DNA of 64,000 nucleotides from Candidatus Omnitrophota bacterium (GCA_022711115.1 JAKLFP010000003.1:73199-137198), one strand, 5' to 3'; counted from the stretch's first letter, positions 5,229-23,546 are shown. Notes: a model not told the origin generated them from the letters alone. Numbers and translations are program-made.

Positions 5229-5483
5229 TCAGGCGGCCTGAAGTCTTTTCCGCAATTTCTCGAATCCTTCGAGAAACGCTTCCGGATTCTCGGGAAACGG
5301 GATTCCGCGCTTGGTAGGAAGCATGATGTCTTCGTACCTTCCTTTTTCGAAATACCGCATATCTCCGGCCTGTTTGCCGTCCACGTCCACGATCGCGAAC
5401 CGGAATTCCTGATTTTTCCCGACGGGTAACACGTGCACCATTTCCTTGGTTTTCGTTACTTTCTTTTTGTATTTTTCAACCAT
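5229..5483 (-). CDS. small PC4/YdbC-like putative ssDNA-binding protein
   Basis: 84 aa; EFRFAIVDVDGKQAGDMRYFEKGRY...LPTKRGIPFP resembles the bacterial PC4-like fold (YRVS..G..yVDlR.y....GelrPTKKGIsl). Good RBS (AAAGGAGCG). Two paralogues are at 18911 and 19580. Confidence 0.4.
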   Translation of the reverse strand: MVEKYKKKVTKTKEMVHVLPVGKNQEFRFAIVDVDGKQAGDMRYFEKGRYEDIMLPTKRGIPFPENPEAFLEGFEKLRKRLQAA

Positions 5484-5511
5484 GTTTAACGCTCCTTTTC
5501 TTTTTTTGGAT

Positions 5512-6477
5512 TTAAACCGCTTCGAGTAATATCACCTGGATGGGCGTATACGCCTCAACCGTCACAGAGGTATCGATCTTCGAGCTCCGGAGATCGCGAG
5601 CCGCTTCGTTCGAGAGATTTTGCGTGAGATTGAGGCGCATCTGATCTTCCAGGCTGTATGGATCGGTTTGTCTTCCGCCCGCAAACAATGAAACCCCCGC
5701 GATGAGGGATTCCCCAACCGCTTTCAGGACCTTTTTGTCCGTATGCTTGTCCACCTTTCCCCGGATCCCGGCGGACCCGTCCTCGGAAAGGGCAAGCGCC
5801 CGGATCCTGATTTCCCTGCCATCCGGGAAAATCAATAGATCGAAACGAACATTGATTCGGTCGACCGATTTCAGGACCGCGGCGTTCCCCAAGAACCGGG
5901 AATCCTTCGGGATCACGATCTTGTCCTGGAAACTGAAATCTTTGGGGAGAACGGCAGTTACCGGAGCCTCGACGTTGAACGAGAAAACGCGGTTCGATAA
6001 AAGCGCGGGGATCTTCGTGCCGGACGAGATCCCTAGTTTCGATTCCTGAGCGGGAATTCTTTCGACCTTGGGATCGTTTTCTTTTTCCGGTTTCTCCACG
6101 AAAACGGCGATGCCGGTGTCGAGCTTCCGCTTTCTTCTTTCGGGTCTGAAGCCCGCTTGAGGCGAGAGCGCCTGTTTCTTCCCCTTCACTGACGCATCGA
6201 TGGCCCGCTCCATCGATACGGCCGTCACAAGCACCCGTTTTTCATCTTGGGCTACTTGCGGCACGGTCGGTTTCTTCCCGGTTTTGGGATAGAAAAAGAA
6301 CAGGGCAAGCACAAAAATGGCAACCCCGGCGATTACGAACCATTTCGGATGTTTTTGAAATAGACTGCCGAGCGCGATCGTTTTTCGGGTTTTTTCCGCC
6401 GGATCGAAGAACTCCGGCTCCGGCGGTTTTGGCGTGTCCTTCACCTGTGTTGGATTCTTCTTTTTGGAGAGTTCCAT
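5512..6477 (-). CDS. virB10: T4SS VirB10/TrbI-like protein
   Basis: N-terminal cytoplasmic segment, one TM helix and a Pro-rich linker. The C-terminal block IPALLSNRV...IPKDSRFLG...RINVRFDLLIFPDGREI...GIRGKVDKHTDKKVLKAVGESLIAG follows the VirB10 C-domain pattern. ATG at 6477 overlaps the VirB9 stop (TGATG). Confidence 0.6.
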   Translation of the reverse strand: MELSKKKNPTQVKDTPKPPEPEFFDPAEKTRKTIALGSLFQKHPKWFVIAGVAIFVLALFFFYPKTGKKPTVPQVAQDEKRVLVTAVSMERAIDASVKGKKQALSPQAGFRPERRKRKLDTGIAVFVEKPEKENDPKVERIPAQESKLGISSGTKIPALLSNRVFSFNVEAPVTAVLPKDFSFQDKIVIPKDSRFLGNAAVLKSVDRINVRFDLLIFPDGREIRIRALALSEDGSAGIRGKVDKHTDKKVLKAVGESLIAGVSLFAGGRQTDPYSLEDQMRLNLTQNLSNEAARDLRSSKIDTSVTVEAYTPIQVILLEAV

Positions 6478-7487
6478 CAGGAGACCCACTCGAACCCTTT
6501 GATTTCGATATTGCGGGCGCTCCCCTCTGCCACGGTATCTTCCAAAATCCTGAAGACCGGTTTTTCGTTCTTTCCCAGAGCCCGGAAATCGAAGACAAGA
6601 ACGCCGTATTCGTAGACATCCGGATTGATGATCTTCGCCAGTTCAAGCTCTGACGGGATCTCGATCATTCCCGATTCTTTCTTAGAGAGGAACTTCTTTT
6701 CGTAGGTGATCGCACCCACCATCGCTTTAAGGAGTTTAAAGGGTGTTTTCGAGTAATTGAGGATCGAAAATCTGAGATAGGCCTTATCCGCCACTTGGGA
6801 AAGCGACAGGAGATTGACCTGCACCTCGCCTTTTCCTTCGGATTTTTTCAGTTCAATTGTCCGCACTCCGGTTGCGATTTTTTCTTTGAGTTTTTTCTCG
6901 GAGATCTTGTCCGCCGTTTCATCGAGTTTCTTTTCTTTGCCCTGATACGTTTTCTCGAGCTCCACTGTTTTCTCCTGGATTTTCTGATCGAACGCGTTTT
7001 TCACGAGCAGGTCGTCATCCTGGGGAAGCCTGAAATCGAGCACGAAATCCGCTGTCTCCGGAGGACCGACCGACACATCGAACGCAAGCCGGCCGGAACC
7101 CGTGACGATCACGAGGTTCGTTCGGGCGTCCGGCTCGTCGGTAATGGGTTTGATGAGGACCTGGCGCTCGTAAACCTCGACTTTGAAAAGTTCCTGGTCA
7201 CCCACGAACACTTTGAGCGCTTTTTCGGGCAAATCGATGGTGGAGATGTAGCCGAGGGCCGTCTGGAGCCTGAAAGCGACGGTCGAGCGCATCGTAACTT
7301 TGTAGATATTCCGGGTCGATCGCTTCAGTTTATTGAAATCCCGGCGCGTTTTAAGCGCGTCCGGCTGGGCGTTAGCGCCCGCAGGCTTCGTCTCCGGCGT
7401 CAAATCGGGATCGTCCGCGAAAGCGGGACCCGCAACCAGGAGCAGCAACAGAAGAACGGACTGGATTTTGAGATTGATGGGCTTCAC
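6477..7487 (-). CDS. virB9: T4SS VirB9/TrbG-like protein
   Basis: Signal peptide; N-domain VFVGDQELFKVEV..QVLIKP....NLVIVTGSGRLAFDV resembles the VirB9/CagX N-domain; C-terminal beta-sandwich-like. 4-nt ATGA overlap with upstream VirB8-like gene. Confidence 0.6.
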   Translation of the reverse strand: MKPINLKIQSVLLLLLLVAGPAFADDPDLTPETKPAGANAQPDALKTRRDFNKLKRSTRNIYKVTMRSTVAFRLQTALGYISTIDLPEKALKVFVGDQELFKVEVYERQVLIKPITDEPDARTNLVIVTGSGRLAFDVSVGPPETADFVLDFRLPQDDDLLVKNAFDQKIQEKTVELEKTYQGKEKKLDETADKISEKKLKEKIATGVRTIELKKSEGKGEVQVNLLSLSQVADKAYLRFSILNYSKTPFKLLKAMVGAITYEKKFLSKKESGMIEIPSELELAKIINPDVYEYGVLVFDFRALGKNEKPVFRILEDTVAEGSARNIEIKGFEWVS

Positions 7488-8149
7488 GGTTTATTGACCT
7501 CCTCTAATTTATTGAGCAGGATCTCACGGTACTGCTCGACTAAAAGACCCCAGGGAATTTCCTGGGTTCGTGGAAATTTTTTGAGGACAAGCTCCGCCTT
7601 AAAAAGGCTCGACTCCCGGTAATCCGGGTTTTTGTAGCTCATGAGCGTTCTGACCCCGATCAAGGACACCCTGAGATACTCGGGTGTCTGGCGTTCGATC
7701 GTTTCTTCCTTGAATTCGATTAGGGCATGCAGCCCGGCTTCTTCCACCCGGGCAAGAAGCCCGGACTCGATAAGTTCCTTTTGCGCGGTCTTTTGATAAC
7801 GCGAGGTCATGAAATTCATGGCTTCCGCCATGTCCCTGGAAAGCGTGTACGCGTTGTACTCGGCATAGCGTTTTACGAAGGCCTTCGCAAAATAGAAGAT
7901 CTCGGGATCGGTCGGAGCGTTGTTGATTTTGATGTCCCGGATCGTTTCCGCTTGCCCGACTTCCGTGACCCGGATCACGACCGGGGGACGCTTCGCCAGC
8001 ACGAAGGCCCCGGCCAGAGCAAAAAAGAGAAGCGTAAACAAAATGAGACTCGTGAGTTTCAGAAATTCCGTCTCCATCTCGAGATCGCCAAACACCTCGT
8101 AGTAACGTCTTTTCATTTTTCCCAATCTTTCTTCAAATCGTGTTTTCAT
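7484..8149 (-). CDS. T4SS VirB8-like bitopic protein
   Basis: ~220 aa with a single N-terminal TM helix and Tyr/Phe-rich NTF2-like C-domain. Its position between the VirB6-like and VirB9-like genes matches canonical order. Confidence 0.45.
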   Translation of the reverse strand: MKTRFEERLGKMKRRYYEVFGDLEMETEFLKLTSLILFTLLFFALAGAFVLAKRPPVVIRVTEVGQAETIRDIKINNAPTDPEIFYFAKAFVKRYAEYNAYTLSRDMAEAMNFMTSRYQKTAQKELIESGLLARVEEAGLHALIEFKEETIERQTPEYLRVSLIGVRTLMSYKNPDYRESSLFKAELVLKKFPRTQEIPWGLLVEQYREILLNKLEEVNKP

Positions 8150-8153
8150 GCGT

Positions 8154-8954
8154 TTATCTCCGACCCGGTTTTATATGTTTCGCAAGAAATGCCGTCACGG
8201 CGCCGAGCGCAATCGAGCCGACGCCGCCGAGGCTTCCCGCTCCGGACACGACCTGCCTCGAAATAAGCGGGACAAGAATAAAAAGAACGATGAACAGGAT
8301 ATTCGCCGCAAAAACGGAGAGGCTATTGGAATCCTGCGCGAAATAAATCGCGGTCAGGTTCATCGTGGAAATCACTTTGAGAAGGATCGCGAGAAGCACC
8401 TGCCAGCTCGAGACCTCGATCACGCTCTTCACCCAGAATCCGAGGCCCTGTGCCGCGCGGTGATAAACCCCGGCCCCGATCACGATAGGCCCGAGGATAT
8501 AGAGCGTGGCGAGCAGGATGAACTGAAGCCACCGAAGGACCGACAGAACCGCGAGCGCAAAGTGATAGGTCAGGGTGTTCATCCCGCGAAGCAGGGACTG
8601 GAAGCTGAAAAATCCCATGTCTTTGTTATCCCGGATCTCGTGAAAAATCGATTGGATCGTTTCTTCGTATTGCTCCTTCGAAAAAATCGAGTCCCCCAAG
8701 AGACGCAGGGCGTGGACGATCCAGACGAAAAACCGCTCGTAAAGAACCAAAAGACTCACCACGAGAACGATGCGGATAAAAAGTCCCGCATAATCCGACT
8801 CCCCCTTCATCCCCTGGATATTTTCATGCAGGATGGCGACGACGAGCATGATCGAGAAAAGCACGAATCCGATCCTTGCCGTGGTCTCATAATCCGAAGC
8901 GAAAAGACTCGGGATCTGAAGAGGGTTCGTGGTGATAGCGCCTCCGCTAAACAT
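8154..8954 (-). CDS. T4SS VirB6/TrbL-like polytopic membrane protein
   Basis: At least 5 predicted TM helices, size and position typical of VirB6/TrbL. Confidence 0.5.
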   Translation of the reverse strand: MFSGGAITTNPLQIPSLFASDYETTARIGFVLFSIMLVVAILHENIQGMKGESDYAGLFIRIVLVVSLLVLYERFFVWIVHALRLLGDSIFSKEQYEETIQSIFHEIRDNKDMGFFSFQSLLRGMNTLTYHFALAVLSVLRWLQFILLATLYILGPIVIGAGVYHRAAQGLGFWVKSVIEVSSWQVLLAILLKVISTMNLTAIYFAQDSNSLSVFAANILFIVLFILVPLISRQVVSGAGSLGGVGSIALGAVTAFLAKHIKPGRR

Positions 8955-8995: not shown

Positions 8996-9763
8996 TTATG
9001 AATTGATGCTTGCAAAGTGATCCTCCATAAATTGATTGGCGTCCTGCAAATACCGGATTCGTTCCGATTCCGCTTCTTTTTCGCGGCGAGTGACCTGCTC
9101 GATTTGGGTGGCATTAAGTTCGATGAGTTTCGCGACCGCTTCCTGATTCTGCTGCCCGAGGATCATGAGCTGGGCGACCCCCTGGGCCTGAAGTTTTGCG
9201 GCTCCTTTCGGGCTTGCGGTTTGCGCCTGCTCCGCGATCGAGTTTGCACTGTCGCGGGTGTTTCCCCCGGCTTCGCGGATCTGACGCGCCAGATCGAACG
9301 CGTCCACGACCATCATTTCCTCAAACGGGATATAAGGCCGTTGATTTCCCTCGGGGATCTGGCCCGTGACCTTTTCCAGAGCCTGCCGGATATCTGCGGG
9401 CCCGTTTCCGCCCTCCAGGATCTCGATCTGAGGAGTAATGAGTCCCGTATCTAAAAATGCGTCCCTGAGCCCCGTCTTTCCTTTTCCCAAGAGATTCCCA
9501 AGAGGCTCTCCGATCACCGAATTCAGGATCTCATCCAACCCTGCATGGAACCGGAAAATCTCAAGCGTTTGGGTCCGGAGCTCGTTTAACTGATCGATCA
9601 CCACCGCGATATTCTGGGCAAATTGGGATTCCATAAGCGAGTTCCGGAGTTGATTGAGAAAAGCATTCGCGGCATCGAAAGTCGGAAGGTCGGCATGAGA
9701 CGACGGAATCCACGCCATGCCCAAAAGCAGGATAAACGCCAGAATCCTCAAGTGTTTCTTCAT
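8996..9763 (-). CDS. T4SS VirB5/TrbJ-like secreted protein
   Basis: Signal peptide, ~250 aa, coiled-coil Q/E-rich, positioned between VirB4 and VirB6. 4-nt overlap with VirB4. Confidence 0.4.
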   Translation of the reverse strand: MKKHLRILAFILLLGMAWIPSSHADLPTFDAANAFLNQLRNSLMESQFAQNIAVVIDQLNELRTQTLEIFRFHAGLDEILNSVIGEPLGNLLGKGKTGLRDAFLDTGLITPQIEILEGGNGPADIRQALEKVTGQIPEGNQRPYIPFEEMMVVDAFDLARQIREAGGNTRDSANSIAEQAQTASPKGAAKLQAQGVAQLMILGQQNQEAVAKLIELNATQIEQVTRREKEAESERIRYLQDANQFMEDHFASINS

Positions 9764-12273
9764 GTTCCACCCCCCGCTTTTTTGACTCCGTTCGGGAATC
9801 TTGCGGCCAGGGTTTCGAGGATCTCGAGATCCGGGATCCCGGGTTTCTCCAGACGAAGACGTCTCTCTTCGGCAAGATCCACGGGATCCGTGGTTGCGGT
9901 CCAGTACTCGATCGGGTTCGGCTCAAGCTTTGCGATCACTCCCTGATCGTCGAATTTGATGAATATCTCGGAGTAGCGTCCCGGTTTCACCTCAAGGTCG
10001 CCGCAGGCCCGGATCTCGTTTTCATTGAGGCCGAACGCGGAAAGCTGGTCATGTCCTTTTTTGAGACGAAGGATATATTTCACGGGCGAGTTATTGACCA
10101 TCACCCCCGCGATCTTCGCTTCGAGGAAATCTTCGGGGTTCTGGCTGATGGAAAGCACCGCCCCATTGAATTTACGGGCGGTCCTGTAAAAAAGCTCGAT
10201 CAAGTCGGTGCCCTGCGTCTCTTTCAGGAGGTGCCAGCATTCATCCAGGACGAGGATCTTTTTAAGATCCAGGTTTTCGAATTTCCGTTTCAGGGCAAAG
10301 GGAATGATGAGAAGCAGGATCTCCTGAAGCTCGGGATACTGCGAGATTTTCCGGAGATCGAAGACGGTAAAACGCGCGTTAAAATCGAAACAGCCGGGAC
10401 GGTTCAGGATCTTTCCGTACTCTCCTTGCGTAAAAAGAGACAGTTCTTTCGCGAACTGGTAAGCGAGTTTCCGGTCCTCCTCGTCTCCAAACCCGAAACT
10501 GCGGAGCGTTTTCTCCACATCCCCGAGAAGCGGGGTCCCGTCACTCGGTATATCCCGGTAAACTTCCGAGATGGCGCGTTCCAGGATCATTTTTTCGCTC
10601 GAGGACCAGACGCGCGCCGGCGCGATCATTGTTTGGAGCAGTTCCTTCAGAAACTGAAGAAAAGTCGAGTCCGCATCGCCCGTTTCCGGAAACAGCACCT
10701 TTTTCGCGGGAAAAGGATTCAACGCGAATTTCTCGGAACATTCCACCTCGAGATAAGAGCCCTTCAGCACTCCCGCGAGTTTCCGGTAGCTCCCGCCAAG
10801 ATCGATCACGATCACGTCGTGCGCCGGGGATTCCATCAGGAAATGAAGAAGCAGGTGATTCGTGAAAAAGGATTTCCCGGAGCCGGTCGTGCCAAGCATC
10901 ACCGCGTGCTTCGCCTGAAGCCGCGCGTCGAAAAGATCGAACCGGAGCGGTTCATCCCGCCGCGTTTTGAGAAGAAGACCGATCTTTTCGGTCCCCGGCC
11001 AGCTCGCTTGCAGAGGAAGGAGATGCGCCAAAGACGCGGACCGGACAAGAAACGCGAGAGGATTTTCTGTGCCCTGAAGAGGCAGGAACGATAAAAAGAG
11101 ACGGTCGTGATTCATGTGATCTTCGAGGCCGGTCGCATCCCCGAGCCTCCGGAAACTCCGGAAGACTTCCGTCGAACGTTCGAGCGCTTCCTCGCGGGAA
11201 CAGGCGCGGACCATCACGGCAAGCGAGATATAGAAAAGTTTATCCGAGCTCTCGGCGATCTCGCTTAAGAGTTCGTCCGACTCGCCGGCTTTGACGATGG
11301 CGTCGTAATCCTTCGTCCGCGAATAGAGGCTCCTGGCCCTGGCGAAATTCCCCTGCCGCCGGATCTCGGATTTCTCGCGGTCCTGTTCCGGCACTTCCAC
11401 GGTAAGGGAAAGGAAATATTCCTTACCCAAACCTTCTTCGAAATTCCGCATGCATTTAAGATCCGTCGATTCGGGAAGCTGAAGAAGATTAAGAGCAGAG
11501 TGGAAATACCGGCTGATGAAAAAAGAGTCGTATTGAGTGACGGGCGCGCTCAAAAGCAGTTTCGATCTTAAACTCGAAGGGTCCTCGCCGTCTTCTTTCT
11601 CGAACGCGTGAAAATCGAAAGGGGCAACCTTTTCCGCGTGATAGGGGTTGAGAAGCTCGTAGCAGTATTTCAGGATCTCTTCATCTTTGAGAAGTTCGAC
11701 TTGGAACCCGAGATCGCGGAAACCGTCCCCCACTTCGCTCGATACTTTCAGAAGCTCGTTTTTCGCCGTCTGGAATTCCGATTCCGAAAGACGGTGCGCT
11801 TTCTTGCCGAAAAGAACCGAGAGATCGGGAAGAAACGAACGGCGGCGCGGGCAAGAAGGTGGGCGAACGATCACAAACAAAAAAACCTCTCTTTTGAGGA
11901 ACGGATTCTTCAGAAAACCGGAAATCTTGGATTCCACGAATTTTGGGGCTAGAGGTGCCTTATCCTGAATGGACTCTCGATATTCCTCGACTACCGCTTC
12001 ATCCCCGTTTTGGGCACGGACGATGAAGTGCAGAATGATCCCTTCGGGGAGACCATTCAGGAATTTCCGGATCTTTTTTTCGTGGTCCACGATTTCTGCC
12101 GGGTCTTTTAAAAGCAGATCCTGCGCGCCAAGCCTTAAACCTCGGCCGAGCGCTCCCGAAACTCCGGTCAGGATCCCTTCTTCGACGCCGTAGAGATCGA
12201 GTTCCCCGAGGAAAGAGGGTTTTCTTTCCCGCTGGATCAGATCCCGAACCTTGAGTAAACGGTTTGTGTTCAT
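9760..12273 (-). CDS. virB4: T4SS VirB4/TrbE-family ATPase
   Basis: Walker A GTTGSGKSFF and Walker B-like ILVLDECWHLL, ~840 aa. Start moved to MNTNRLL (ATG at 12273), which forms an ATGA overlap with the VirB3 stop; the track's longer start would overlap VirB3 by 87 nt. Confidence 0.85.
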   Translation of the reverse strand: MNTNRLLKVRDLIQRERKPSFLGELDLYGVEEGILTGVSGALGRGLRLGAQDLLLKDPAEIVDHEKKIRKFLNGLPEGIILHFIVRAQNGDEAVVEEYRESIQDKAPLAPKFVESKISGFLKNPFLKREVFLFVIVRPPSCPRRRSFLPDLSVLFGKKAHRLSESEFQTAKNELLKVSSEVGDGFRDLGFQVELLKDEEILKYCYELLNPYHAEKVAPFDFHAFEKEDGEDPSSLRSKLLLSAPVTQYDSFFISRYFHSALNLLQLPESTDLKCMRNFEEGLGKEYFLSLTVEVPEQDREKSEIRRQGNFARARSLYSRTKDYDAIVKAGESDELLSEIAESSDKLFYISLAVMVRACSREEALERSTEVFRSFRRLGDATGLEDHMNHDRLFLSFLPLQGTENPLAFLVRSASLAHLLPLQASWPGTEKIGLLLKTRRDEPLRFDLFDARLQAKHAVMLGTTGSGKSFFTNHLLLHFLMESPAHDVIVIDLGGSYRKLAGVLKGSYLEVECSEKFALNPFPAKKVLFPETGDADSTFLQFLKELLQTMIAPARVWSSSEKMILERAISEVYRDIPSDGTPLLGDVEKTLRSFGFGDEEDRKLAYQFAKELSLFTQGEYGKILNRPGCFDFNARFTVFDLRKISQYPELQEILLLIIPFALKRKFENLDLKKILVLDECWHLLKETQGTDLIELFYRTARKFNGAVLSISQNPEDFLEAKIAGVMVNNSPVKYILRLKKGHDQLSAFGLNENEIRACGDLEVKPGRYSEIFIKFDDQGVIAKLEPNPIEYWTATTDPVDLAEERRLRLEKPGIPDLEILETLAARFPNGVKKAGGGT

Positions 12274-12551
12274 TTTAGAAATTGATCCTCTTTTCTTTCG
12301 CGTTTCAAGGGGTATTCTCTCGGGTGCATAAGAAACCGAAGCACCGATCCAGACCAATGCGGCGCTTTGCCGCGTTTGTAGAACCGGAGCCCGAGATACG
12401 ACGCCGTCACAATCGCAAGATTCAAGATCAGGTTGTTCGAGAGAACGAAAATGACCATATAAATAACGAGCAATACCAAAAGGTCGAAGAACTCGAGCCC
12501 GAAGATTTTGTTGCTCGTTTGAATTTTGTTGTAGCCTTTGACGGTGTTCAT
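12270..12551 (-). CDS. T4SS VirB3/TrbD-like small membrane protein
   Basis: 93 aa with one or two TM helices, immediately upstream of and translationally coupled to VirB4. Confidence 0.5.
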   Translation of the reverse strand: MNTVKGYNKIQTSNKIFGLEFFDLLVLLVIYMVIFVLSNNLILNLAIVTASYLGLRFYKRGKAPHWSGSVLRFLMHPREYPLKRERKEDQFLK

Positions 12552-12557
12552 TTTTTC

Positions 12558-12872
12558 CTAGAACCTCGTTATGTTTTGAATGAATGCGAGAATCGCGCGG
12601 GAAAGCAGGATCAAAGCACCGCCCGTCGCGGCAAGAGCGCCGCGCTGCATCCCCCGCTCGTCCCCAAGAGCCATGGAGACTCCGGCCACGGCGACTCCGA
12701 TCACGAGCACCGCGGGACCGACGATCCGGATCAGAAAATCACCGACCCCCTCGAGAAAAGCGTTGAGATCGGATTCGGAAGTCGCCTCCGCAAACGCCAT
12801 ATGCGAGCGAAGGAACAAAACCGCTCCGAACAAAAGCACCTTTAGAATTTCGAGTTTGAAGTTTTTTTTCAT
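12558..12872 (-). CDS. T4SS VirB2/TrbC-like pilin
   Basis: 104 aa; signal peptide followed by two hydrophobic segments with a Gly/Ala-rich loop, typical of T-pilin. First gene of the virB2-B10 block. Confidence 0.5.
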   Translation of the reverse strand: MKKNFKLEILKVLLFGAVLFLRSHMAFAEATSESDLNAFLEGVGDFLIRIVGPAVLVIGVAVAGVSMALGDERGMQRGALAATGGALILLSRAILAFIQNITRF

Positions 12873-15479: not shown

Positions 15480-15551
15480 GATTTAACCCTCCTGTTTTAC
15501 GAGACACGAAAGGCGGGGTCACAAAACCCCGCCTTTCTGCCGCGTCGTTTT

Positions 15552-16613
15552 TTAAACTCCCGAGAGCTCGAAAAGTTCCGGGGATTCCTCGTTCGCCTCT
15601 CTGCCGCCCCGGCCGCGCCCGAACGAATCCAGACAATCGAAGCTGCACGACTCGCACATGAACCGGCGGCTCATCTCGTCATAGTAAAGCTCCCCCGTCT
15701 CGAATTCGCGGCGGCATGCCGCGCAAACGATCTTCGAATGTTCGCCGATCCCCGAACCTTCGAAGAAGCCGAAGCCCTCGAGGTCCGCGAACGAGAAGAA
15801 ATTCGGCTGACTTCCCGGCCGGAAATCGTCCTCCGCCCAACGCGACGGAGCCGGCCTTTCGCAGGATTTCATCGCGCATACCGTTTTCCGGAGATGGCTT
15901 CTCCCGTTGAAATCCCTGACGTCGGCGGTATAGAGATGATCCTCTTTGATCTGCCAAACGGAACCTTTCAGGCCGTTACGGGCAAGCGCATACTCGAGAT
16001 GTTCCGCGTCGCTGGCCCAGAAAAGCGTCCGGAGGGACGGAACATACGCGATATGGAGGGGCCGATCTTCGTTCCGGATCAAAAAGAGCCGGTCCGGATC
16101 GTTTTTCAGCGAGAAACCCAAAGCAAAATCCCCTTCCATCTCGCTTAGCTTCGATACGAACCCTTTCGAGTCCTTCTCCCCGTCAAGGACCCTGAAAATC
16201 GCTTCGCTGTCGACCGGGGTCGCCGCTTTTTTTCCGTATTTCTTGAGCAACGCCTCGCGGTTCAGGAAATGACCGTTATGCACCCCGAGAAAATCATCCG
16301 ACTCGAAGGGATGGCAGTGGCAGTTCCGGACATCCCCAACCGTTGCGAGGCGGGTATGCCCGAGACAGATCTGCGTGCCCTCCGAGATCGCCCGGATCAT
16401 TTTCTGGAACCGTTTCGTCCTGAGGAGTTTCCCAGCGGGCGACGCTTCCTTGAACATCATCCACTTCCCACGGGAAAGCAGCGCGATCCCGGTCCCGTCC
16501 TTTCCCCGCGTTTCGTTCAGAAACGCAAGATCCATCACGGCCCCCCTGATCCTGAAGCGTTCAAGAACATTCAAATGCCCTTCTTTCCTTGCAAATCCGT
16601 AGATTCCGCACAT
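15552..16613 (-). CDS. class II (Ntn-type) glutamine-amidotransferase-like protein with C-terminal zinc ribbon; predicted partner of the amidoligase
   Basis: True start MCGIYGF (Met-Cys N-terminus typical of class II GATases) at ATG 16613 with RBS AAGGAGGA. C-terminal CAACRREF...YYDEMSRRFMCESCSFDC is a CxxC...CxxC ribbon. The 59-codon track extension has no RBS. Confidence 0.75.
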   Translation of the reverse strand: MCGIYGFARKEGHLNVLERFRIRGAVMDLAFLNETRGKDGTGIALLSRGKWMMFKEASPAGKLLRTKRFQKMIRAISEGTQICLGHTRLATVGDVRNCHCHPFESDDFLGVHNGHFLNREALLKKYGKKAATPVDSEAIFRVLDGEKDSKGFVSKLSEMEGDFALGFSLKNDPDRLFLIRNEDRPLHIAYVPSLRTLFWASDAEHLEYALARNGLKGSVWQIKEDHLYTADVRDFNGRSHLRKTVCAMKSCERPAPSRWAEDDFRPGSQPNFFSFADLEGFGFFEGSGIGEHSKIVCAACRREFETGELYYDEMSRRFMCESCSFDCLDSFGRGRGGREANEESPELFELSGV

Positions 16614-16663
16614 GACACGATCCTCCTTGTTTTTTCGAGTTGGATTGTTCGATAGCAGCCTGA

Positions 16664-17941
16664 TTAAACAGCCGGGCAGGAAAAACGTTCGGGATGGAAC
16701 TTCGCGACGCGGTCGCGCATATACGCGCCGAGCCCCGCAGGAACGCCGAGGAACGAGACGAATCCCTCGAAACGCTCCTTGAAACCGCAATTCGGAAGCG
16801 CCTTGAACGTCTTACTCTCTTTCGCTTTGTCAACGAGCGCCTGGCAGATCACGATGAAATTCGTGATCTTCTGGGCGTTCAAAGTCCCGGAATGGTAACG
16901 GAACTCGAGCGAGCGCCTGAAAAACCAGGAGTGGATATTGAGCCCGTAGTAGCGGGAGTGGTGATACTTGGACTTGAGGTCGACTCTCCCGCTCCCCCGG
17001 GGGCCATACCAGAGCTTTTTGAGCGCTTCTTCGTCCCTTGCCGCGATCCGGAACCTCGATTTCGGAAACCGTTCGAGCGGGACGGAATAACTTCCCTCAT
17101 GGCGGGATTCGGGAAGCATGGCGTAAAGCACCGGCTCGAAGTATCGCGTGATCTTGAGGATCTTCTTGATGTCCTCGCACCCAAGATCCCGGCCGTCGAT
17201 ATGCACGTGAAGACCGCAGGAGCGGTTCACGAAATAACCCCACCCTTGAAGGATCCCCGCGAATTTCCGGATCTCATGGAATCCTTCGTCTCCTTGGAGG
17301 ATGGGGCTTACGTACTCCCGCCCGTCGTCTCCTAAAGACCCGTCCGTCACCTGTTTCCAGTCCTTGAGCCGTTCGTGCGGAAGATGCTCCGCTCCCTCTC
17401 CCATCATGGCCTCGATTTCGATCCCGTACTTGCGCGGGGACGGACATACGGAGAAACTCTTTCCGGAAAATTCGGGATACCTGGGCGAAGCGTCCGTTTC
17501 GCGGCTGTCCCAGCAGTCCTCGCAATATTCGTCGCCGTCGTCGTTGCGGAAACACGAATCGGGATCGATCTGATCGCGGCACGCGGCGCAATACGTCACG
17601 CGCTCGCTAAAACAACTCTCGCAATAATCCCGGTCGTGAAGCTCGGAATAATGCGCGCGGCCGGTCGGGACATACTCTTCGCATCCGGCACAATACCGGA
17701 AATTCTCGTCCAGGCATTCCCCGCAATAGCATTTCCCGTTTACTTTCTTCATTTCCTCTTTCCAAAAGACTTCGCCGCATTGGGCGCATGCCCCGGCCAG
17801 CTCGTGAAAACAGTCCCGGCACAGGACTTTGCCTCCGTGCTCGAGATACACGAGTCCCGGATCTTCGGCGCGGCAGTTCGAACAGATCTTGAGACCGGAG
17901 GCCGCAGCGGGCTCTTTCGAAAGTTGAACGCTTGTTGTCAT
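16664..17941 (-). CDS. Amidoligase_2-family (glutamine-synthetase-like fold) protein fused to an N-terminal array of ~4 CxxC...CxxC zinc ribbons
   Basis: C-terminal half GIEIEAMM...GLHVHIDGRDL...YYGLNIHSW...LEFRYHSGTLNAQKITNF matches the Amidoligase_2 (PF12224) pattern, which starts with the G-x-E-x-E block. N-terminal 140 aa carry CSNC..CRDC, CAQC..CGEC, CAGC..CESC, CAAC..CEDC. RBS AAAGGAGA. Confidence 0.65.
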   Translation of the reverse strand: MTTSVQLSKEPAAASGLKICSNCRAEDPGLVYLEHGGKVLCRDCFHELAGACAQCGEVFWKEEMKKVNGKCYCGECLDENFRYCAGCEEYVPTGRAHYSELHDRDYCESCFSERVTYCAACRDQIDPDSCFRNDDGDEYCEDCWDSRETDASPRYPEFSGKSFSVCPSPRKYGIEIEAMMGEGAEHLPHERLKDWKQVTDGSLGDDGREYVSPILQGDEGFHEIRKFAGILQGWGYFVNRSCGLHVHIDGRDLGCEDIKKILKITRYFEPVLYAMLPESRHEGSYSVPLERFPKSRFRIAARDEEALKKLWYGPRGSGRVDLKSKYHHSRYYGLNIHSWFFRRSLEFRYHSGTLNAQKITNFIVICQALVDKAKESKTFKALPNCGFKERFEGFVSFLGVPAGLGAYMRDRVAKFHPERFSCPAV

Positions 17942-17985
17942 GGAGAATCTCCTTTCGCGTTGAAAAAAAGTTGTCTTTGGCGTTT

Positions 17986-18648
17986 TTAAAGCTGGTTACG
18001 TTCCGAAAAACTGAAGTATTGGTTCTCGCCGACGATGATGTGATCGAGAACGCGGACCGAAACCGTCTGGCAGGCCGCTTTGATTTTCTGAGTGATCTCG
18101 TAGTCCTCGCGGCTTGGTTCGATCTTCCCGGAGGGGTGGTTATGAACGAGCACGATATTCGACGAATTCCGAAGAAGCGCTTCTTTCACGACCTCGCGGG
18201 GATGCACGGCGGCTTCGTCGACCGTGCCGAAAAAGATGTCTTTGTCGCCGAGAATCTTCAGGGCTTTGTCGAGAAACATCACCCTGAAGACCTCCCGCTT
18301 CAGGTCTCTCAGGCTCGCCGAAAGATAGTCCGTGACCGCTTGGGGACTCCGGACGAAGCTCTGGCCGATGATCCCCTGCCTCAGAACGCGGCGGCCGATC
18401 TCCCGGACGGCCTGAAGCTGGATCCTTTGCGCCTCCGGCAAATCCCCGAGATCGAAAAGCTGGCGGAGCCCGCCCGCCTTATTCAGGATCTCGAGGGCAA
18501 CATCCACTTCCGTTTGCTCGTAAGTGCACTTTTTCAGGATAAGAGACAAAAGCTCGGCGTCCGATAACGCTTCGATTCCTTTGTCTTTCGCCCGCGCCGA
18601 AGGTTGCTCGCTCTCCGGCCAATCCTTGACCGATAATTTTTTTCGCAT
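17986..18648 (-). CDS. radC: RadC-family JAB/MPN-domain protein
   Basis: HNHPSG JAMM motif and RadC N-terminal signature (KDWPESEQPSAR...GIEALSDAELLSLIL aligned to LPEEERPRERL...GAEALSDAELLAILL). Start at MRKKLSV (ATG 18648, RBS AAGGAGA). Confidence 0.8.
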   Translation of the reverse strand: MRKKLSVKDWPESEQPSARAKDKGIEALSDAELLSLILKKCTYEQTEVDVALEILNKAGGLRQLFDLGDLPEAQRIQLQAVREIGRRVLRQGIIGQSFVRSPQAVTDYLSASLRDLKREVFRVMFLDKALKILGDKDIFFGTVDEAAVHPREVVKEALLRNSSNIVLVHNHPSGKIEPSREDYEITQKIKAACQTVSVRVLDHIIVGENQYFSFSERNQL

Positions 18649-18722
18649 GACTGCGGTCTCCTTTGAAGACAAAAAGGGCGGGAAGAACGAAATGCTCTCC
18701 CCGCCCGCCGTTGAAAGATCCT

Positions 18723-18815
18723 TCACTTCACGATTACTTCCCAGCCGCGGCGTCTGAAACGCTCGATCAGCGCGGCGTATTTGATCTCATCTGCTTTGCG
18801 GATAATGAGACGCAT
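18723..18815 (-). CDS. possible small ORF (30 aa, basic)
   Basis: MRLIIRKADEIKYAALIERFRRRGWEVIVK preceded by a strong GGGAGGTG 6 nt upstream; it sits between the PC4-like gene terminator and radC. Could equally be a leader or decoy. Confidence 0.25.
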   Translation of the reverse strand: MRLIIRKADEIKYAALIERFRRRGWEVIVK

Positions 18816-18830
18816 GGAAATCACCTCCCT

Positions 18831-18884
18831 CTTTTTAAAAATGAAAAGGGGGGAAACGGTCGAAAATGCGGACCGCTTCCCCCT
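18831..18884 (-). terminator. rho-independent terminator after PC4-like gene 18911-19429
   Basis: Minus-strand GC stem (gggggaagcggtc/gaccgtttccccc) followed by TTTTCATTTTTAAAAAG. Confidence 0.55.
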
Positions 18885-18910
18885 CTGTTTGCCGTTTAAA
18901 CCCAGCCGCT

Positions 18911-19429
18911 TTAGGCCGGCTGAACGGACGTTTCCACCGGCATCGGTTCGGCTTCCGGGCTCTGGAGAGCCGCTGCGACACCCTCGACGGACGACTCGAG
19001 GATCGACAGCGCCTTCCTGGAACTCGGGATGAAGCTCCCTTCGCCGCCCTTGAAAGCGTACGAGATCCGAACGATGCGGTTTTTGGGGCCCCGCACTTTC
19101 GAGATCTGGTACTGCTCGGTTTCCGAAACCGCGACCGCGCTCACGAACGCCGTCTCGCAGTTTTTGCCTTCGGACGGCTCGGGAATCTCGGCGGCGTTTT
19201 TCGCCGCGAGGAGAGCCGCCGCGATTTCGCGGCGGAGCCGGGCAAGGACGTTCACGCCTTCCCGGGTCTTCCTGAGTTTCCCGTCCTTCGTGTAATACAC
19301 GCGGAGGTCGAGAAAGTGTTTGCCTTCCTTGCCCGTCCACGCGGAAACGCGGTAGATATCGTTCCCGTTCCGCGGAACGTCCGCGATGATCTTGTTTTCG
19401 TTTTTGCTGATTTCCTTTTGAGTTTCCAT
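18911..19429 (-). CDS. PC4/YdbC-like putative ssDNA-binding protein (172 aa)
   Basis: DIYRVSAWTGKEGKHFLDLRVYYTKDGKLRKTREGVNV matches the PC4-like core. RBS AAAGGAGAAAC. The overlapping 252-aa Arg-rich frame is judged spurious. Confidence 0.45.
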   Translation of the reverse strand: METQKEISKNENKIIADVPRNGNDIYRVSAWTGKEGKHFLDLRVYYTKDGKLRKTREGVNVLARLRREIAAALLAAKNAAEIPEPSEGKNCETAFVSAVAVSETEQYQISKVRGPKNRIVRISYAFKGGEGSFIPSSRKALSILESSVEGVAAALQSPEAEPMPVETSVQPA

Positions 19430-19514
19430 TGTCTTGTTTCTCCTTTTTTGATTTTTGAATTGGATTTTTCCTGCTATTCAAATGCCTCGTTTTTCCTGGG
19501 TTTCACCTCCCTTT

Positions 19515-19557
19515 CGAAAATAAAAAGGAGAAGCGGGTCGAAATGACCGGCTTCTCC
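19515..19557 (-). terminator. rho-independent terminator after PC4-like gene 19580-20083
   Basis: Minus-strand stem ggagaagccgg/ccggcttctcc followed by TTTTTATTTTCG. Similar in sequence to the 18831-18884 terminator. Confidence 0.6.
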
Positions 19558-19579
19558 GAAGTTGTCGTCCCCCGTTTTT

Positions 19580-20083
19580 TCAAAGAGAACGGGCGCGCTT
19601 GGCGCGTTCAAGGCCCGCGATCACCCGCTCGATCAACCGCATCTCGATCACGGTCCCTTTCCTGTAATACGGGCTCCACTTCCGGCCTACGTTCAGCATC
19701 ATCCGCCTGAGCTCCACGAACTGCGCGTCCTTCTTGCGGAGCTTGTAGAAGCGGTAGATGTCCCACTCCGAAATATAGAACTGCCAGGCGATGATTCTGT
19801 TTTCCTCCGCCCCGCACAAAGACCTCCTGGCAGGCGTATTCTTGGCGAGGGTAAGCCCTTCGATTACGTCCCCCAGAAGTTCCCTTTCGATCCAGAGGCC
19901 TTCGATCCTCGGGATCAAACGGGCGGGATCCTCGATCGCCCGGGCGAAAACCCTTAGGTCGACGTGCCTCATCCCGCGGTATTCCTTGTTGGAAATGCGG
20001 TAGATCTCCCGTTCGTTGATCGGGATATCGCAGATCACCTTCGTTTTGAAATCGTCGTTTCTCTTGTAATCCAGTCCAAGCAT
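19580..20083 (-). CDS. PC4/YdbC-like putative ssDNA-binding protein (167 aa)
   Basis: Start MLGLDYK at ATG 20083 with RBS AAAGGAG 7 nt upstream. EIYRISNKEYRGMRHVDLRVFAR aligns with the other two PC4-like genes. Confidence 0.45.
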   Translation of the reverse strand: MLGLDYKRNDDFKTKVICDIPINEREIYRISNKEYRGMRHVDLRVFARAIEDPARLIPRIEGLWIERELLGDVIEGLTLAKNTPARRSLCGAEENRIIAWQFYISEWDIYRFYKLRKKDAQFVELRRMMLNVGRKWSPYYRKGTVIEMRLIERVIAGLERAKRARSL

Positions 20084-20239
20084 TTGATGCTCCTTTCTTC
20101 GCTGAAAAAGCAAAAGGAGAGAAACGCAAACCGCGCGCATCTCTCCTTTGGTTGAAAACAAAATAAGCGGAGCACGCCAAACCGGCACGCTTCGCTTATT
20201 CGTCGGATTTACTTGAAGTTATGAAGCCCGAAACCGGGC

Positions 20240-22084
20240 CTAGACCGCTTTGTTTCTCGTGTTTTTCACCTCCTTCACGACCTCGAGCGGATTATCCGCC
20301 TTGACCGGGCCGAGTTTCTCTTTGAATTTTTCGAGAAGTTTCAGTTCTTCCACAAGCTCTTCGTCTTCGAAAATATCGGGGTTGTGGTTCGGCTTGAATT
20401 CGCCGCGATAAGCGGGGTGCCCGAAGAAATCGAGTTTCACGTAGTCGGTAAGAAGCGACGGACTTTTCCAGATCACGACCGCTTCCCCGCGCTTAAGGGC
20501 CCGGATAAGATCGGGCTCGATCCGGAAAGTCTGCCCCTCCCGGACCGAGCCGGTGCCGGTAAAGCCCTTGCCGAGGATCTTATCTTCCGTCTGATAAGTA
20601 GAAATCATGGTCGTGCGGGTGCCGCCGATCTTCGAGAATTTCTCGACCGAGATGGGGTCATCCTGCCTCAGAACGATCTTGATATTGGTATTTTCCATCA
20701 CCTGCTGTTGAAAGTTCGGAATGCCGCGGAAATAAAGATCCCCAAGCGACTGATGAAGGATCGTGACCGCAAAACCGCTCGCCCGGCATTTGTTGAGGAA
20801 ATCGATAAAATTAAGCTCCAAAAAACTCGAGGCATCGTCGATGAAAACCGGGAAGAAATGACGGCGGTGTTCCGGAATTTTGGCCTGGATGTGGCTGGAA
20901 ACGGCGCGGATATCCTGGATCACCATCCTCCCGAGACGGCGGGAGGTGTCCGCGTATTTCTGAAGATCGAGGGCGAAATAGCAGATCTGGTTTTTATTAT
21001 AGACCCTTAACAGATCGATTTCCGGACGGACCGTGTCCAGAAGGTCCGAAAACTCGCTCCGAGACGTGAGATAAAGGTCCGCCATGAGCCCGGAAAGGAA
21101 CTTCTGATTGTCTTTGAAGCTACTCACCATCTTTCCGATATCATCCTTGAGAACGGGATCCTGAGTCTCGTCGGAAAGCTTCGAGAGAGCGTCGACGTCC
21201 GTGAGATATGCGTGAAGATCCCGGAATCTCGTGCTTTTTTTCCGTTTCCGGGAAGCGATCGCGTTGAAAAGCGTAAGCGCGGCGCGCTCGGCCATCCTCC
21301 GGTAAAACTCCTCGCTCCAGACCATGCTGTTGATCAGTTTGTCTTTGAGTTCCGTGGGATTCCCCCTGAAAAGAGGGTTATAGGTATTGGATTTATCGGG
21401 ATGAGCCAGCGAGAAAAAGAAGAAGTCATCCCCGCGGTTTTTCTCTTTGACGATGTATTGGATCCGGTTTAGGAGCTCGAGATCCCCTTTCCCGTCGAGG
21501 ATAATAGCGCCTTTACCGCGTGCGATATCGTGGGCAAGCATGGGAAGGAGCACGGATTCGGTCTTTCCGGTCCCGGTGCTTCCCACCACTTCGCAGTGCA
21601 TTTGGCGCTGGTCGTTGGTGAGATAAAGAGGCTTGCCTCTCCTGAAACTTTCGCCGAGATAGACCTTGTGATAATCGGACGCGAGCCGGTTCCGGCGCAT
21701 GGTTCCCGGGGCAGGGTCGATTCTCCGGTCTTCGGACTTGAACTTCGAATCCTGAGTGAAATAGGCGAAAAGTATGAAAACGGGAAGCGTAGCGGCCGTG
21801 TAAACGCCGTAGAATAGCGCGAAGCGGATGCCGCCCTGCCAGTTCTGATTCACGAACCCATTCTGGAAAAGCAGGTTTATACCGTCAAGCAGCCGGCTTA
21901 AACCGAGGATCGCCCCTGCGGAAAACAGGACCGGGATGCCAAGCACCATTCTTTCGACCCGAGGTTTTCCGATCCTTGAAACGAGGAGTAAAAAACTCCG
22001 GGCGATCCCGAGCGGAACCGCGATGAATATTCCCGTGATCAATTTGACGAGAAACGGTTCTTGTCTTCCCGGAGGTTTTGTCAT
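20240..22084 (-). CDS. virD4: type IV coupling protein (VirD4/TraG/TraD family)
   Basis: N-terminal TM helices, Walker A VVGSTGTGKTESVLLP, ~610 aa, adjacent to the putative relaxase. Confidence 0.85.
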   Translation of the reverse strand: MTKPPGRQEPFLVKLITGIFIAVPLGIARSFLLLVSRIGKPRVERMVLGIPVLFSAGAILGLSRLLDGINLLFQNGFVNQNWQGGIRFALFYGVYTAATLPVFILFAYFTQDSKFKSEDRRIDPAPGTMRRNRLASDYHKVYLGESFRRGKPLYLTNDQRQMHCEVVGSTGTGKTESVLLPMLAHDIARGKGAIILDGKGDLELLNRIQYIVKEKNRGDDFFFFSLAHPDKSNTYNPLFRGNPTELKDKLINSMVWSEEFYRRMAERAALTLFNAIASRKRKKSTRFRDLHAYLTDVDALSKLSDETQDPVLKDDIGKMVSSFKDNQKFLSGLMADLYLTSRSEFSDLLDTVRPEIDLLRVYNKNQICYFALDLQKYADTSRRLGRMVIQDIRAVSSHIQAKIPEHRRHFFPVFIDDASSFLELNFIDFLNKCRASGFAVTILHQSLGDLYFRGIPNFQQQVMENTNIKIVLRQDDPISVEKFSKIGGTRTTMISTYQTEDKILGKGFTGTGSVREGQTFRIEPDLIRALKRGEAVVIWKSPSLLTDYVKLDFFGHPAYRGEFKPNHNPDIFEDEELVEELKLLEKFKEKLGPVKADNPLEVVKEVKNTRNKAV

Positions 22085-22090
22085 GACGCA

Positions 22091-22858: not shown

Positions 22859-22910
22859 CCTCCCGAAAGGTTTTCTTTCAGGATCTTTCAAGAGAAAGCG
22901 ATCCTGACCC

Positions 22911-22945
22911 GGAGGGAAAAGAGAATCCGAGTCTCTTTTCCCTCC
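22911..22945 (-). promoter_or_regulatory. perfect 14-bp-stem inverted repeat between gene 22959-23408 and the relaxase gene (oriT candidate / attenuator)
   Basis: ggagggaaaagaga atccgag tctcttttccctcc; no T-tract follows. Confidence 0.4.
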
Positions 22946-22958
22946 ATTGCATACCCGC

Positions 22959-23408
22959 TTAACGGCCCAAGCGGCCCGTCAGGCGCTCGGCAACTCCCAG
23001 CACATCGTGTACGAACCGGTTCTGCTCCCGCGTCATATCGACGCGGTAACGGTTCTGTTCGCGCAGAAGGCCGACTTGATCGGCGGGTTTTGACTGAATT
23101 ATCACCGGCTGATTTACATGGGGAATGACCGCCGGGCTCCGCGGGACCATAAAATCCGTAGAAGCTTCGGCCCGTCCTCCCGAGTATTTCAGCCATGTTC
23201 TCACGCCCTCATTGACCATCGTCACGAGTAAAAAGGACGCGAAAACAAGAATCGCAACGAACTTCGCTTTCGAAATCGCTTTCTTGCTTTCACGGCGCGG
23301 CATCTCGATGACTTGCACTGCCGCGTAACGTCTGAATCTCGAAACATCTCTGACGTTCGGAGACATCTCACGTCTTTTGCTCATCTCTAGAGTACTCATA
23401 TCGCTCAT
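22959..23408 (-). CDS. hypothetical membrane-anchored protein, first gene of mobilisation operon
   Basis: RBS AAAGGAGATG, one TM helix (FVAILVFASFLLVTMV), internal repeat REQNRYRVDMTREQNRFVHDV. The conserved 70-bp element lies 70-140 bp upstream. Confidence 0.4.
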   Translation of the reverse strand: MSDMSTLEMSKRREMSPNVRDVSRFRRYAAVQVIEMPRRESKKAISKAKFVAILVFASFLLVTMVNEGVRTWLKYSGGRAEASTDFMVPRSPAVIPHVNQPVIIQSKPADQVGLLREQNRYRVDMTREQNRFVHDVLGVAERLTGRLGR

Positions 23409-23477
23409 CTCCTTTTGGCTCTAACGCCGAATTACCTCCCAAGTCTAGGATTGGGTGTTTTTGTTTTTAATGCATCT

Positions 23478-23546
23478 CTCATATAGGGGTCAGAAACGGG
23501 CATTTTTTGACGAATCGGACGACACCTGCCCTCTAGAAATATTTTT
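23478..23546 (-). promoter_or_regulatory. ~70-bp conserved element, copy B, upstream of mobilisation operon
   Basis: ctcatataggggtcagaaacgggcattttttgacgaatcggacgacacctgccctctagaaatattttt; ~64/69 identical to copy A, with the same orientation relative to the downstream minus-strand genes. Confidence 0.5.

Follow-up and report, generated by a model that had tools for sequence, protein, structure and literature searches.

The 64,000-nt stretch of a Candidatus Omnitrophota bacterium contig analyzed here (JAKLFP010000003.1:73199-137198 of GCA_022711115.1; hereinafter, the window) encodes a conjugation-type type IV secretion system (T4SS) that is likely to be the core of an integrative and conjugative element (ICE) of about 36 kb, residing in the chromosome and belonging to a family restricted to this phylum. 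A relaxase, a coupling protein and a channel with a VirB4 ATPase are all encoded, the setting is chromosomal, and recombinase genes are located at one extremity. The preliminary description of this DNA, which delimited the locus to positions 5229-23546, left it open whether this was an ICE, a plasmid segment or a domesticated secretion system. The conjugation-type reading stands, and the question can now be decided in favor of an ICE because housekeeping genes are encoded on the same contig, recombinases are found nearby, related elements end with recombinase genes, and both the cargo and the flanking genes vary. Related or comparison loci are denoted L001-L033, of which L014 is the left flank on the same contig and L016 is the Myxococcus plasmid pYRE.

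The locus is assigned to the chromosome because gpsA, dnaJ, grpE and hrcA are present on the same contig, within the window; beyond the left end, two-component and other genes are found. No integrase is encoded inside the window, as originally noted; the recombinases sit beyond its left edge, at a distance of 4.9-9.5 kb (positions 7308-11900 of L014), where five head-to-tail genes encode XerC/D-like tyrosine recombinases (Phage_integrase) of 280, 312, 311, 320 and 311 aa. Genes 2 and 3 and genes 4 and 5 are pairs of paralogs, and the first gene is truncated, lacking the region for the C-terminal catalytic His/Tyr. In the related elements, the gene for the YhcG nuclease is followed by a single tyrosine integrase (L027, L030 and L031) or by a large serine recombinase (L032 and L033), and in L033 housekeeping genes follow the recombinase. 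The GC content is 0.50-0.56 from approximately 27 kb of the window to the end of the integrase array and 0.40-0.46 in both flanks, falling immediately after the fifth recombinase gene. The chromosomal flanks differ between genomes.

The locus consists of two operons, each preceded by a copy of a 69-bp promoter-like element (Table 1). The genes for the relaxase and the coupling protein form one of these operons, located behind a candidate origin of transfer (oriT). Between 23408 and 5229, every plausible gene is encoded on the minus strand, as initially described, and the public gene calls for the identical contig agree. The gene overlaps reported at four junctions are confirmed as well: the virB3- and virB4-like open reading frames (ORFs) share an ATGA at 12270-12273, B4/B5 and B8/B9 overlap by 4 nt each (9760-9763 and 7484-7487, respectively), and B9/B10 share 1 nt at 6477, in the form of TGATG. 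The Agrobacterium-like virB order also holds, with the reservation that the identities of B3, B5 and B6 are positional, with weak or no profile support. The original limits, in contrast to the gene block itself, proved too narrow. The left limit at 5229 is artificial: after VirB10 and a small conserved protein, denoted p84, the secretion operon carries on leftward to window position 1 and beyond. On the right, additional cis elements and regulators are located outside the former boundary, at 23.6-25.9 kb.

Table 1. Genes and sites assigned to the element or to its right end, in window coordinates, with the supporting matches or properties
Feature	Position	Strand	Basis or remark
YhcG/DUF1016 PD-(D/E)XK-type nuclease, 5' part	1..444	-	PF17761 and PF06250; runs off the left edge
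Sugar-1-phosphate nucleotidyltransferase	437..1255	-	Pfam NTP_transferase 119.9 bits; NCBIfam GlmU/GalU/RmlA-like matches
HlyD-type periplasmic adaptor (membrane fusion protein)	1258..2184	-	HlyD_3 55 bits; RND_mfp 73 bits; one N-terminal transmembrane (TM) segment
Membrane glycosyltransferase of family 2 (GT2), OpgH/MdoH-like glucan synthase	2213..3796	-	Glyco_trans_2_3 52 bits; 5 predicted TM segments
TolC-family outer membrane factor	3793..5175	-	Pfam OEP 127 bits; TIGR01844 64 bits; signal peptide; 4-nt overlap with the GT2 gene
p84, small cytoplasmic PC4-like protein, putative single-stranded DNA (ssDNA)-binding	5229..5483	-	no signal peptide or TM segment; follows VirB10
VirB10/TrbI homolog	5512..6477	-	TrbI 63.9 bits, cutoff 35; NF038091 44.5 bits; bitopic
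VirB9/CagX homolog	6477..7487	-	signal peptide, not a lipoprotein; CagX 31.9 bits, just under the cutoff of 34.2
VirB8 homolog	7484..8149	-	VirB8 25.9 bits, cutoff 23.2; bitopic
VirB6-like polytopic inner membrane protein	8154..8954	-	5-6 TM segments; faint profile matches
Secreted all-helical protein in the VirB5 position	8996..9763	-	signal peptide
VirB4 ATPase, 837 aa	9760..12273	-	P-loop_TraG 120 bits; TraC_F_IV 33 bits
VirB3/TraL-like small membrane protein	12270..12551	-	93 aa, one TM segment; weak TraL match, E 3e-3
VirB2/TrbC-type pilin	12558..12872	-	Pfam TrbC 37.2 bits, cutoff 27.9; signal peptide and two hydrophobic segments
69-bp promoter-like element, copy 1	12968..13036	-	~95 nt upstream of virB2
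Regulator with two sigma-70 region-4-like helix-turn-helix (HTH) modules	13023..13652	-	Sigma70_r4_2 43 bits; directly upstream of virB2 in all elements
Variable cargo, leading-region-like position	14417..20188	-	Pfam matches and PC4 homology
Coupling protein, VirD4/TraD type	20240..22084	-	T4SS-DNA_transf 40.8 bits, cutoff 20.1; 2-3 N-terminal TM segments
MOB_C/Replic_Relax-type putative relaxase, 255 aa	22091..22858	-	NF041423, homologs, AlphaFold (AF2) model
p149, small membrane protein, first gene of the DNA-processing operon	22959..23408	-	one TM segment
69-bp promoter-like element, copy 2	23478..23546	-	~70 nt before the p149 gene, which opens the relaxase operon
Candidate oriT, nested inverted repeat	23607..23735	.	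inner hairpin 23627-23684, core GACTACGC...CGTAGTC
LacI-family regulator	24388..25449	-	Pfam LacI and Peripla_BP; membership in the element uncertain
XRE-type HTH gene, divergent from LacI	25564..25854	+	HTH_3 26.9 bits

The putative relaxase shows no match to Pfam PF13814 even at E<=1; its affiliation is indicated by similarity to the NCBIfam model MobC_subf NF041423 ('MobC family replication-relaxation protein'; E 1.5e-9), by homologs and by the predicted structure. Its positional counterpart in the distant element L009, with 35% identity, has a recorded PF13814 match; PF13814 is detected in 14 of the 35 relaxase homologs, and one is named by NCBI as a replication-relaxation family protein. 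The relaxase homologs share contigs with VirB4 homologs. The AF2 model built from 33 sequences (pLDDT 89, pTM 0.84) consists of a winged helix followed by an alpha/beta domain. In Foldseek searches, the N-terminal part is weakly similar to MecI/MarR repressors, and the C-terminal part to the small subunit of R.BspD6I (E 0.018, probability 0.99), SdaI and Can2-type nucleases, with no match at E<=0.001 for either part; a search of PDB with the sequence profile recovered no solved relative. The invariant residues are H124, D125, P159, D160, E173 and K181, with E175 nearly invariant (HD...PD...ExE...K). Thus, the protein combines an N-terminal winged helix with a restriction-endonuclease-like domain containing conserved acidic and lysine residues, the fold that characterizes MOB_C. 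It resembles the MOB_C relaxases (the group of pAD1 TraX and CloDF13 MobC) in the winged helix, the nuclease-like domain and the adjacent VirD4-type coupling protein, and differs from them in falling under the Pfam and NCBIfam thresholds. The CONJscan counterpart of PF13814 is the MOB_C superfamily, the usual partner of which is a VirD4-type coupling protein (PMC5357655). The preliminary identification of a Replic_Relax relaxase was therefore right in substance, even if the protein itself is sub-threshold; the type, which had been described as poorly characterized, is a recognized one, MOB_C. The coupling protein additionally matches TraG-D_C (28 bits) and SXT_TraD (114 bits), and its best NCBIfam matches are TraD models. 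The first protein of this operon, p149, has no family match in profile scans and shows weak similarity (27%) to the ORF that occupies this position in L013.

Upstream of the relaxase operon, the nested inverted repeat is a candidate oriT. As ssDNA, it has a predicted folding energy of -19.9 kcal/mol (z -5.4), and L012 and L013 keep the structure in the equivalent location (72% column identity). The outer stems vary in sequence from element to element with complementarity kept, and the surrounding DNA shows no detectable similarity. The candidate oriT occurs once per element. Between it and the LacI gene, there is an ORF of 123 aa (23757-24128, minus strand) with several CxxC pairs, zinc-ribbon-like, that has no homolog at the matching position in L012 or L013 and may or may not be a gene. 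The start of a 68-kb JGI contig, near 23870, falls into the interval that separates LacI from the candidate oriT.

The two copies of the 69-bp promoter-like element are 90% identical; by chance, no such pair would be expected. The 3' core of the sequence, TTTyNGnCCCmWTAyNnTGAGG, is present on the coding strand ahead of virB2 in all elements, and also before the relaxase operon in L012 and L013; altogether, there are 13 sites in 636 kb, on the coding strand, and none elsewhere. The upstream part of about 25 nt varies between elements and is constant among the copies within one element. The regulator encoded immediately upstream of virB2 is only 26-40% identical between elements, and a profile of 7 orthologs matches region 4 of FliA, SigF and RpoE in both modules. 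The simplest interpretation of this pattern appears to be an operator private to each element that would be read by the element's own regulator. A third copy of the motif is located in the gap of about 200 bp between the VirB8 and VirB9 genes in L001 (15039), L002 (14977) and L003 (6635); in the window, there is no third copy, and the VirB8 and VirB9 genes overlap. An Rfam scan of the 1-30 kb region detected no non-coding RNA, and a scan for sigma-70 promoters and terminators yielded nothing above chance. The same sequence is covered by a Logan assembly contig whose end, at about 12997, is inside the 69-bp repeat, probably because of a repeat-caused assembly break.

Read from the ATG start at 12273, VirB4 is identical to a Candidatus Omnitrophota protein encoded on contigs of 68-300 kb; an alternative TTG start was rejected given that the exact look-up was empty. 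In the protein database, VirB4 shows 51-71% identity to the members of about 50 clusters, all of which, where the source is named, come from Omnitrophota; these are followed by a small clade at 38% and then by proteins with 29% identity or less. The VirB9 homolog matches NCBIfam VirB9 (TIGR02781, E 1.8e-10) and DUF2381 (28 bits), and its relatives exceed the CagX cutoff. VirB8 is 23% identical to an ORF of pYRE (E 1e-12). The faint matches of the VirB6-like protein are to CtnDOT_TraJ and TIGR03782 (E 5e-4), with a weak TrbL match in L009. The protein in the B5 position matches no Pfam, NCBIfam or PDB profile; neither a comparison of a 13-ortholog profile with PDB nor that of each member with Pfam yielded anything relevant, and only 21 relatives are detectable among 1.84 billion representative proteins. 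Because the single-sequence AF2 model is poor (pLDDT 51) and there is no profile match, the B5 label stays positional. The p84 protein is homologous to a 114-aa protein of L007 with a Pfam PC4 match (E 3.6e-8) and is kept in every related locus.

Comparison of VirB4 with the models for known classes gives scores under the curated cutoffs: 271 bits for the F-type TraC (TIGR02746; cutoff 567), 162.5 bits for VirB4_CagE (TIGR00929; cutoff 643), 143 bits for the CD1110 type (cutoff 325), 78 bits for the Bacteroidetes TraG (Bac_Flav_CT_G; cutoff 262), 43 bits for the PFL_4706 type (traC_PFL_4706; cutoff 521) and at most 73 bits for the TrbE models. Similarity to solved structures is weak, with 50.6 bits for the Thermoanaerobacter VirB4-like protein (4ag5) and 39 bits for TrwK. 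Of the features that define the T-type mating-pair formation class (MPF_T), exemplified by the Agrobacterium VirB/VirD4 system, the locus shares the gene order B2-B3-B4-B5-B6-B8-B9-B10 and a pilin, VirB8, VirB9 and VirB10 that match the Pfam models; it differs in the VirB4 score, which stays below the threshold, and in having no VirB11, VirB1 or VirB7. The resemblance to the F-type (MPF_F) is of another kind: VirB4 scores best against TraC, B3 is weakly similar to TraL, the coupling protein is closest to TraD, and VirB9- and VirB10-like proteins occur without VirB11. Unlike the F-type loci, however, the genes here are in a VirB-like order rather than traL-E-K-B-V-C, the TraC score is below the cutoff, and no F-specific families (TraV, TraF, TraH, TraN, TraU, TraW or TraG_N) are detected among the products of the operon. 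Nor is VirB4 near the class models of MPF_B, MPF_C or MPF_G. MPF_C was considered for its VirB-like order and rejected, VirB4 scoring just 36 bits against the model for cyanobacterial Nostoc pCC7120alpha. To judge from these comparisons, the apparatus appears to be a VirB11-less conjugative T4SS, closest to the F-type by its ATPases and VirB-like by gene order, that could be placed in none of the eight classes.

The nearest VirB4 outgroup beyond the clade belongs to an F-like locus of Ca. Ratteibacteria (159 bits) that has the F gene order. Among plasmids, the closest VirB4 proteins are those of Myxococcus plasmids (for example, M. stipitatus pYRE, NZ_CP102771.1), with 26-28% identity (259 bits). 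The likeness to pYRE extends to a coupling protein encoded upstream, VirB8- and VirB10-like ORFs downstream and a comparable order, and VirB9 of the window matches the myxobacterial DUF2381. In contrast to the locus described here, pYRE is a plasmid with ParAB; hidden Markov models of the relaxase, the B5-position protein and the regulator detected no counterparts on it, and there is no homolog of the glucan module described below. The plasmid also carries ArdC, its VirB10-like domain forms the C-terminal part of a protein of 813 aa with a protein kinase annotation, and the plasmid is typed as non-mobilizable by PLSDB/MOB-suite.

No T2SSE/VirB11 ATPase, lytic transglycosylase or lipobox protein is encoded among the window ORFs of at least 120 aa, long antisense ORFs included, or in the 18.5 kb beyond the left window edge, and the gene calls of the seven related loci for which Pfam annotation was precomputed contain no T2SSE match. 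The initial report that VirB11, VirB1 and VirB7 are missing is thus upheld for the whole span between a point 18.5 kb left of the window and the window's right end; a VirB11 gene adjacent to the window, which had been named as the finding that would speak against the original account, did not turn up over these 18.5 kb. It had also been suggested that VirB9 and VirB10 without VirB11 are odd, which does not hold: the absence is ordinary outside MPF_T, and the F-type systems are alike in this respect. VirB11 is rare outside MPF_T (19%), VirB7 evolves fast and is often missed, and VirB1 is non-essential (PMC4027160), and for these reasons the lack of the three proteins is no anomaly.

Leftward of p84, the secretion operon continues, with gaps or overlaps of at most 44 nt, into a predicted module for the synthesis and export of a sugar polymer. 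This module includes the complete tripartite set of a membrane GT2 synthase, an HlyD-type adaptor and a TolC-family channel, followed by a nucleotidyltransferase, which is likely to supply the NDP-sugar, and by YhcG, the last conserved gene of the long operon. An alignment of the adaptor retrieved 23 metagenome loci with the same operon. The order of genes is the same in L001, L002, L007, L008 and in all 12 long metagenome loci obtained by the adaptor-profile retrieval; the nucleotidyltransferase gene is syntenic in all long related loci, and YhcG follows it in L007, L008, L027 and L030-L033. In every element examined, the trio and the nucleotidyltransferase belong to the T4SS operon. The synthase, 59-70% identical across the related loci, scores 160 bits against NCBIfam MdoH, which is under the cutoff. 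A GT2 synthase, an HlyD-type adaptor and a TolC channel jointly export beta-glucans, for example, in the BgsA/BgsB/TolC system of Sinorhizobium and in the cyanobacterial cellulose system (PMC13438883). The module in the window is like both systems in the GT2/HlyD/TolC trio; unlike in BgsA/BgsB/TolC, the trio is encoded together with the nucleotidyltransferase, within a T4SS operon and on a mobile element, and the synthase is OpgH/MdoH-like rather than BgsA/BcsA-like. By this analogy, a glucan would be made and exported when the transfer genes are on, most likely holding the mating cells together. Surface exclusion or protection are other roles that the glucan may have. The TolC-like protein was also considered as a substitute for VirB7 or the outer pore, an explanation that was dropped in favor of the BgsA/BgsB/TolC analogy, which better accounts for the whole four-gene module.

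Between the genes for the coupling protein and the regulator, the elements carry variable cargo in a leading-region-like position. In the window, the cargo encodes a 130-aa membrane protein, a DUF6573 protein, a class-II glutamine amidotransferase, an Amidoligase_2 protein, a RadC/JAB protein and two tandem PC4-like proteins; in other elements, DUF932, ThiF with JAB, UmuDC, DUF2201 or a restriction-modification system are found instead. Such genes are typical of leading regions (PMC12826799). Altogether, the element encodes three PC4-like putative ssDNA-binding proteins (5229-5483, 18911-19429 and 19580-20188), and those in the cargo contain two PC4-like repeats each.

At the right end, a LacI gene is present upstream of the relaxase also in L012 (96.6% amino acid identity) and L013 (49%), and the genes beyond it differ; the divergent XRE gene next to LacI is shared by the window and L012 and is missing in L013. 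The LacI/XRE module (24390-25853) is 88.5% identical at the nucleotide level, over 1.46 kb, to positions 1251-2714 of L012, which comes from another Omnitrophota metagenome-assembled genome, with the identity stopping exactly at both stop codons and the outer flanks being unrelated. The conjugation genes are only 66-76% identical between the same two loci, below the value for LacI/XRE. Probably, this module forms the end of the element next to oriT and has been shuffled by recombination. Alternatively, the site next to lacI may be a conserved chromosomal integration target, although the different families of the recombinases in related elements speak against a shared one.

Several considerations weigh against the interpretation of the locus as a chromosomal ICE. 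All the data come from metagenome assemblies, and excision, a circular form and transfer are predictions. The search for flanking direct repeats, in which the window region 23.3-29 kb was compared with the DNA past the integrase array using exact 13-mers and blastn-short, found no attachment (att) repeat of at least 14 nt between the candidate ends, only chance-level matches of 9-14 nt; thus, of the two kinds of terminal features that the preliminary description had proposed to look for, integrases are present and att repeats were not found. The five-integrase array is unusual, without close homologs seen on the other VirB4 contigs, and could be a separate entity that abuts the element. The occurrence of LacI on the relaxase side in three genomes could mean a fixed chromosomal site. 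The relaxase fails PF13814 and is far under the NCBIfam cutoff (37.5 vs 200 bits); B3, B5 and B6 are identified by position, size and topology, the B5-position protein matching no VirB5 profile. Finally, it is purely by inference that the glucan module is assigned a part in mating.

The alternatives have to be judged against the same body of evidence. It is unlikely that the locus is a domesticated, vertically inherited secretion system that mediates contact with a host or prey, delivers proteins or DNA and coats the surface with glucan, with no self-transfer. The system is accompanied by a relaxase, a coupling protein and a conserved hairpin; the recombinases at the ends of the relatives come from two unrelated families; the variable cargo is typical of mobile elements (restriction-modification, UmuDC, RadC and DUF932); and the flanking genes differ by genome, with the island being compositionally distinct. 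All this goes against domestication, notwithstanding the high conservation of the T4SS and glucan-export operon across many Omnitrophota genomes, the LacI neighbor in three of these, and the description of Omnitrophota as predatory or host-associated bacteria whose large secretion loci are located close to giant genes, to which the 4439-aa gene 5 kb away would correspond. Quite unlikely, too, is a decayed or non-autonomous island, that is, an ICE remnant or a helper-dependent element. This possibility is suggested by the failure to find VirB11, VirB1 and a VirB7-like lipoprotein, by the truncated first integrase gene and by the lack of detected att repeats; however, all genes are intact and translationally coupled, VirB11-less conjugative systems are the rule outside MPF_T, and the same reduced gene set is kept at 50-70% identity in more than 20 loci, a conservation that points to selection on a working machine. 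As for a plasmid segment or an integrated plasmid, the best matches to VirB4 in the plasmid database, which are on Myxococcus plasmids, and the absence of a recombinase inside the window could be taken as hints, but the contig of 281-300 kb has housekeeping genes on both sides of the locus, no replication or partition genes are seen, and recombinases are adjacent, which makes this explanation highly improbable.

If the locus is indeed an ICE, its functioning can be tentatively outlined. The regulator would turn on both promoters, and a recombinase encoded at the far end would cut the element out; the relaxase would then nick at the hairpin, and the coupling protein would pass the strand to the channel, which VirB4 would power without VirB11, as in F-type systems. 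By analogy with BgsA/BgsB/TolC, the TolC/GT2/HlyD trio would export a glucan, probably sticking the donor to the recipient. A more far-reaching version of this scenario, possible although doubtful, is that these elements represent a ninth, phylum-specific class of conjugative T4SS, with a VirB-like order, an F-like, deeply divergent VirB4, no VirB11 or lipoprotein and a MOB_C relaxase. Such a class would encode, in one operon with the channel, its own TolC/GT2/HlyD glucan exporter as a mating adhesin or a surface-exclusion layer, and the promoters of each element would have a code of their own, recognized by the double-HTH regulator that this element encodes.

The features that appear to be new are the phylum-specific, unclassifiable T4SS variant with a MOB_C relaxase, the fixed linkage to a glucan exporter, the element-specific pair of promoter and regulator, and the conserved candidate oriT. 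No description of this ICE family or of the linkage between a T4SS and a polysaccharide exporter was found in the searchable literature, which is no proof of novelty. The Omnitrophota are abundant, ultra-small and uncultured, and the routes of gene exchange in this phylum are almost unknown; recent surveys of Omnitrophota mobile elements reported elements without the classical ICE machinery. The phylum thus gains a complete candidate ICE family, and the candidate oriT, the promoter-regulator pair and the relaxase model could become genetic tools. A new mode of mating-pair stabilization is suggested by the strict linkage between the T4SS and a polysaccharide synthase-exporter. These systems also demonstrate that standard typing can fail, given that the nearest plasmid relative is called non-mobilizable and that every T4SS class model tested remained under its curated cutoff.

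Other genes of the window are located outside the element. About 5 kb from it, a 4439-aa ORF (28736-42055, minus strand) shows matches to the right-handed beta-helix/NosD, RHS-repeat and ILEI-like families and fits the giant secreted proteins reported for Omnitrophota. A 922-aa ORF (50829-53597, plus strand) has no Pfam match. An IS481-family transposase gene (rve and HTH_32; 56034-57206, minus strand) adjoins the sole tRNA gene of the window, tRNA-Met (55901-55977). Two proteins (57975-58616, plus strand, and 60121-60975, minus strand) contain C-terminal PEP-CTERM sorting motifs, and no exosortase is seen in the window. A 798-aa protein encoded close to the right end (61516-63912, minus strand) consists nearly entirely of HEAT repeats.

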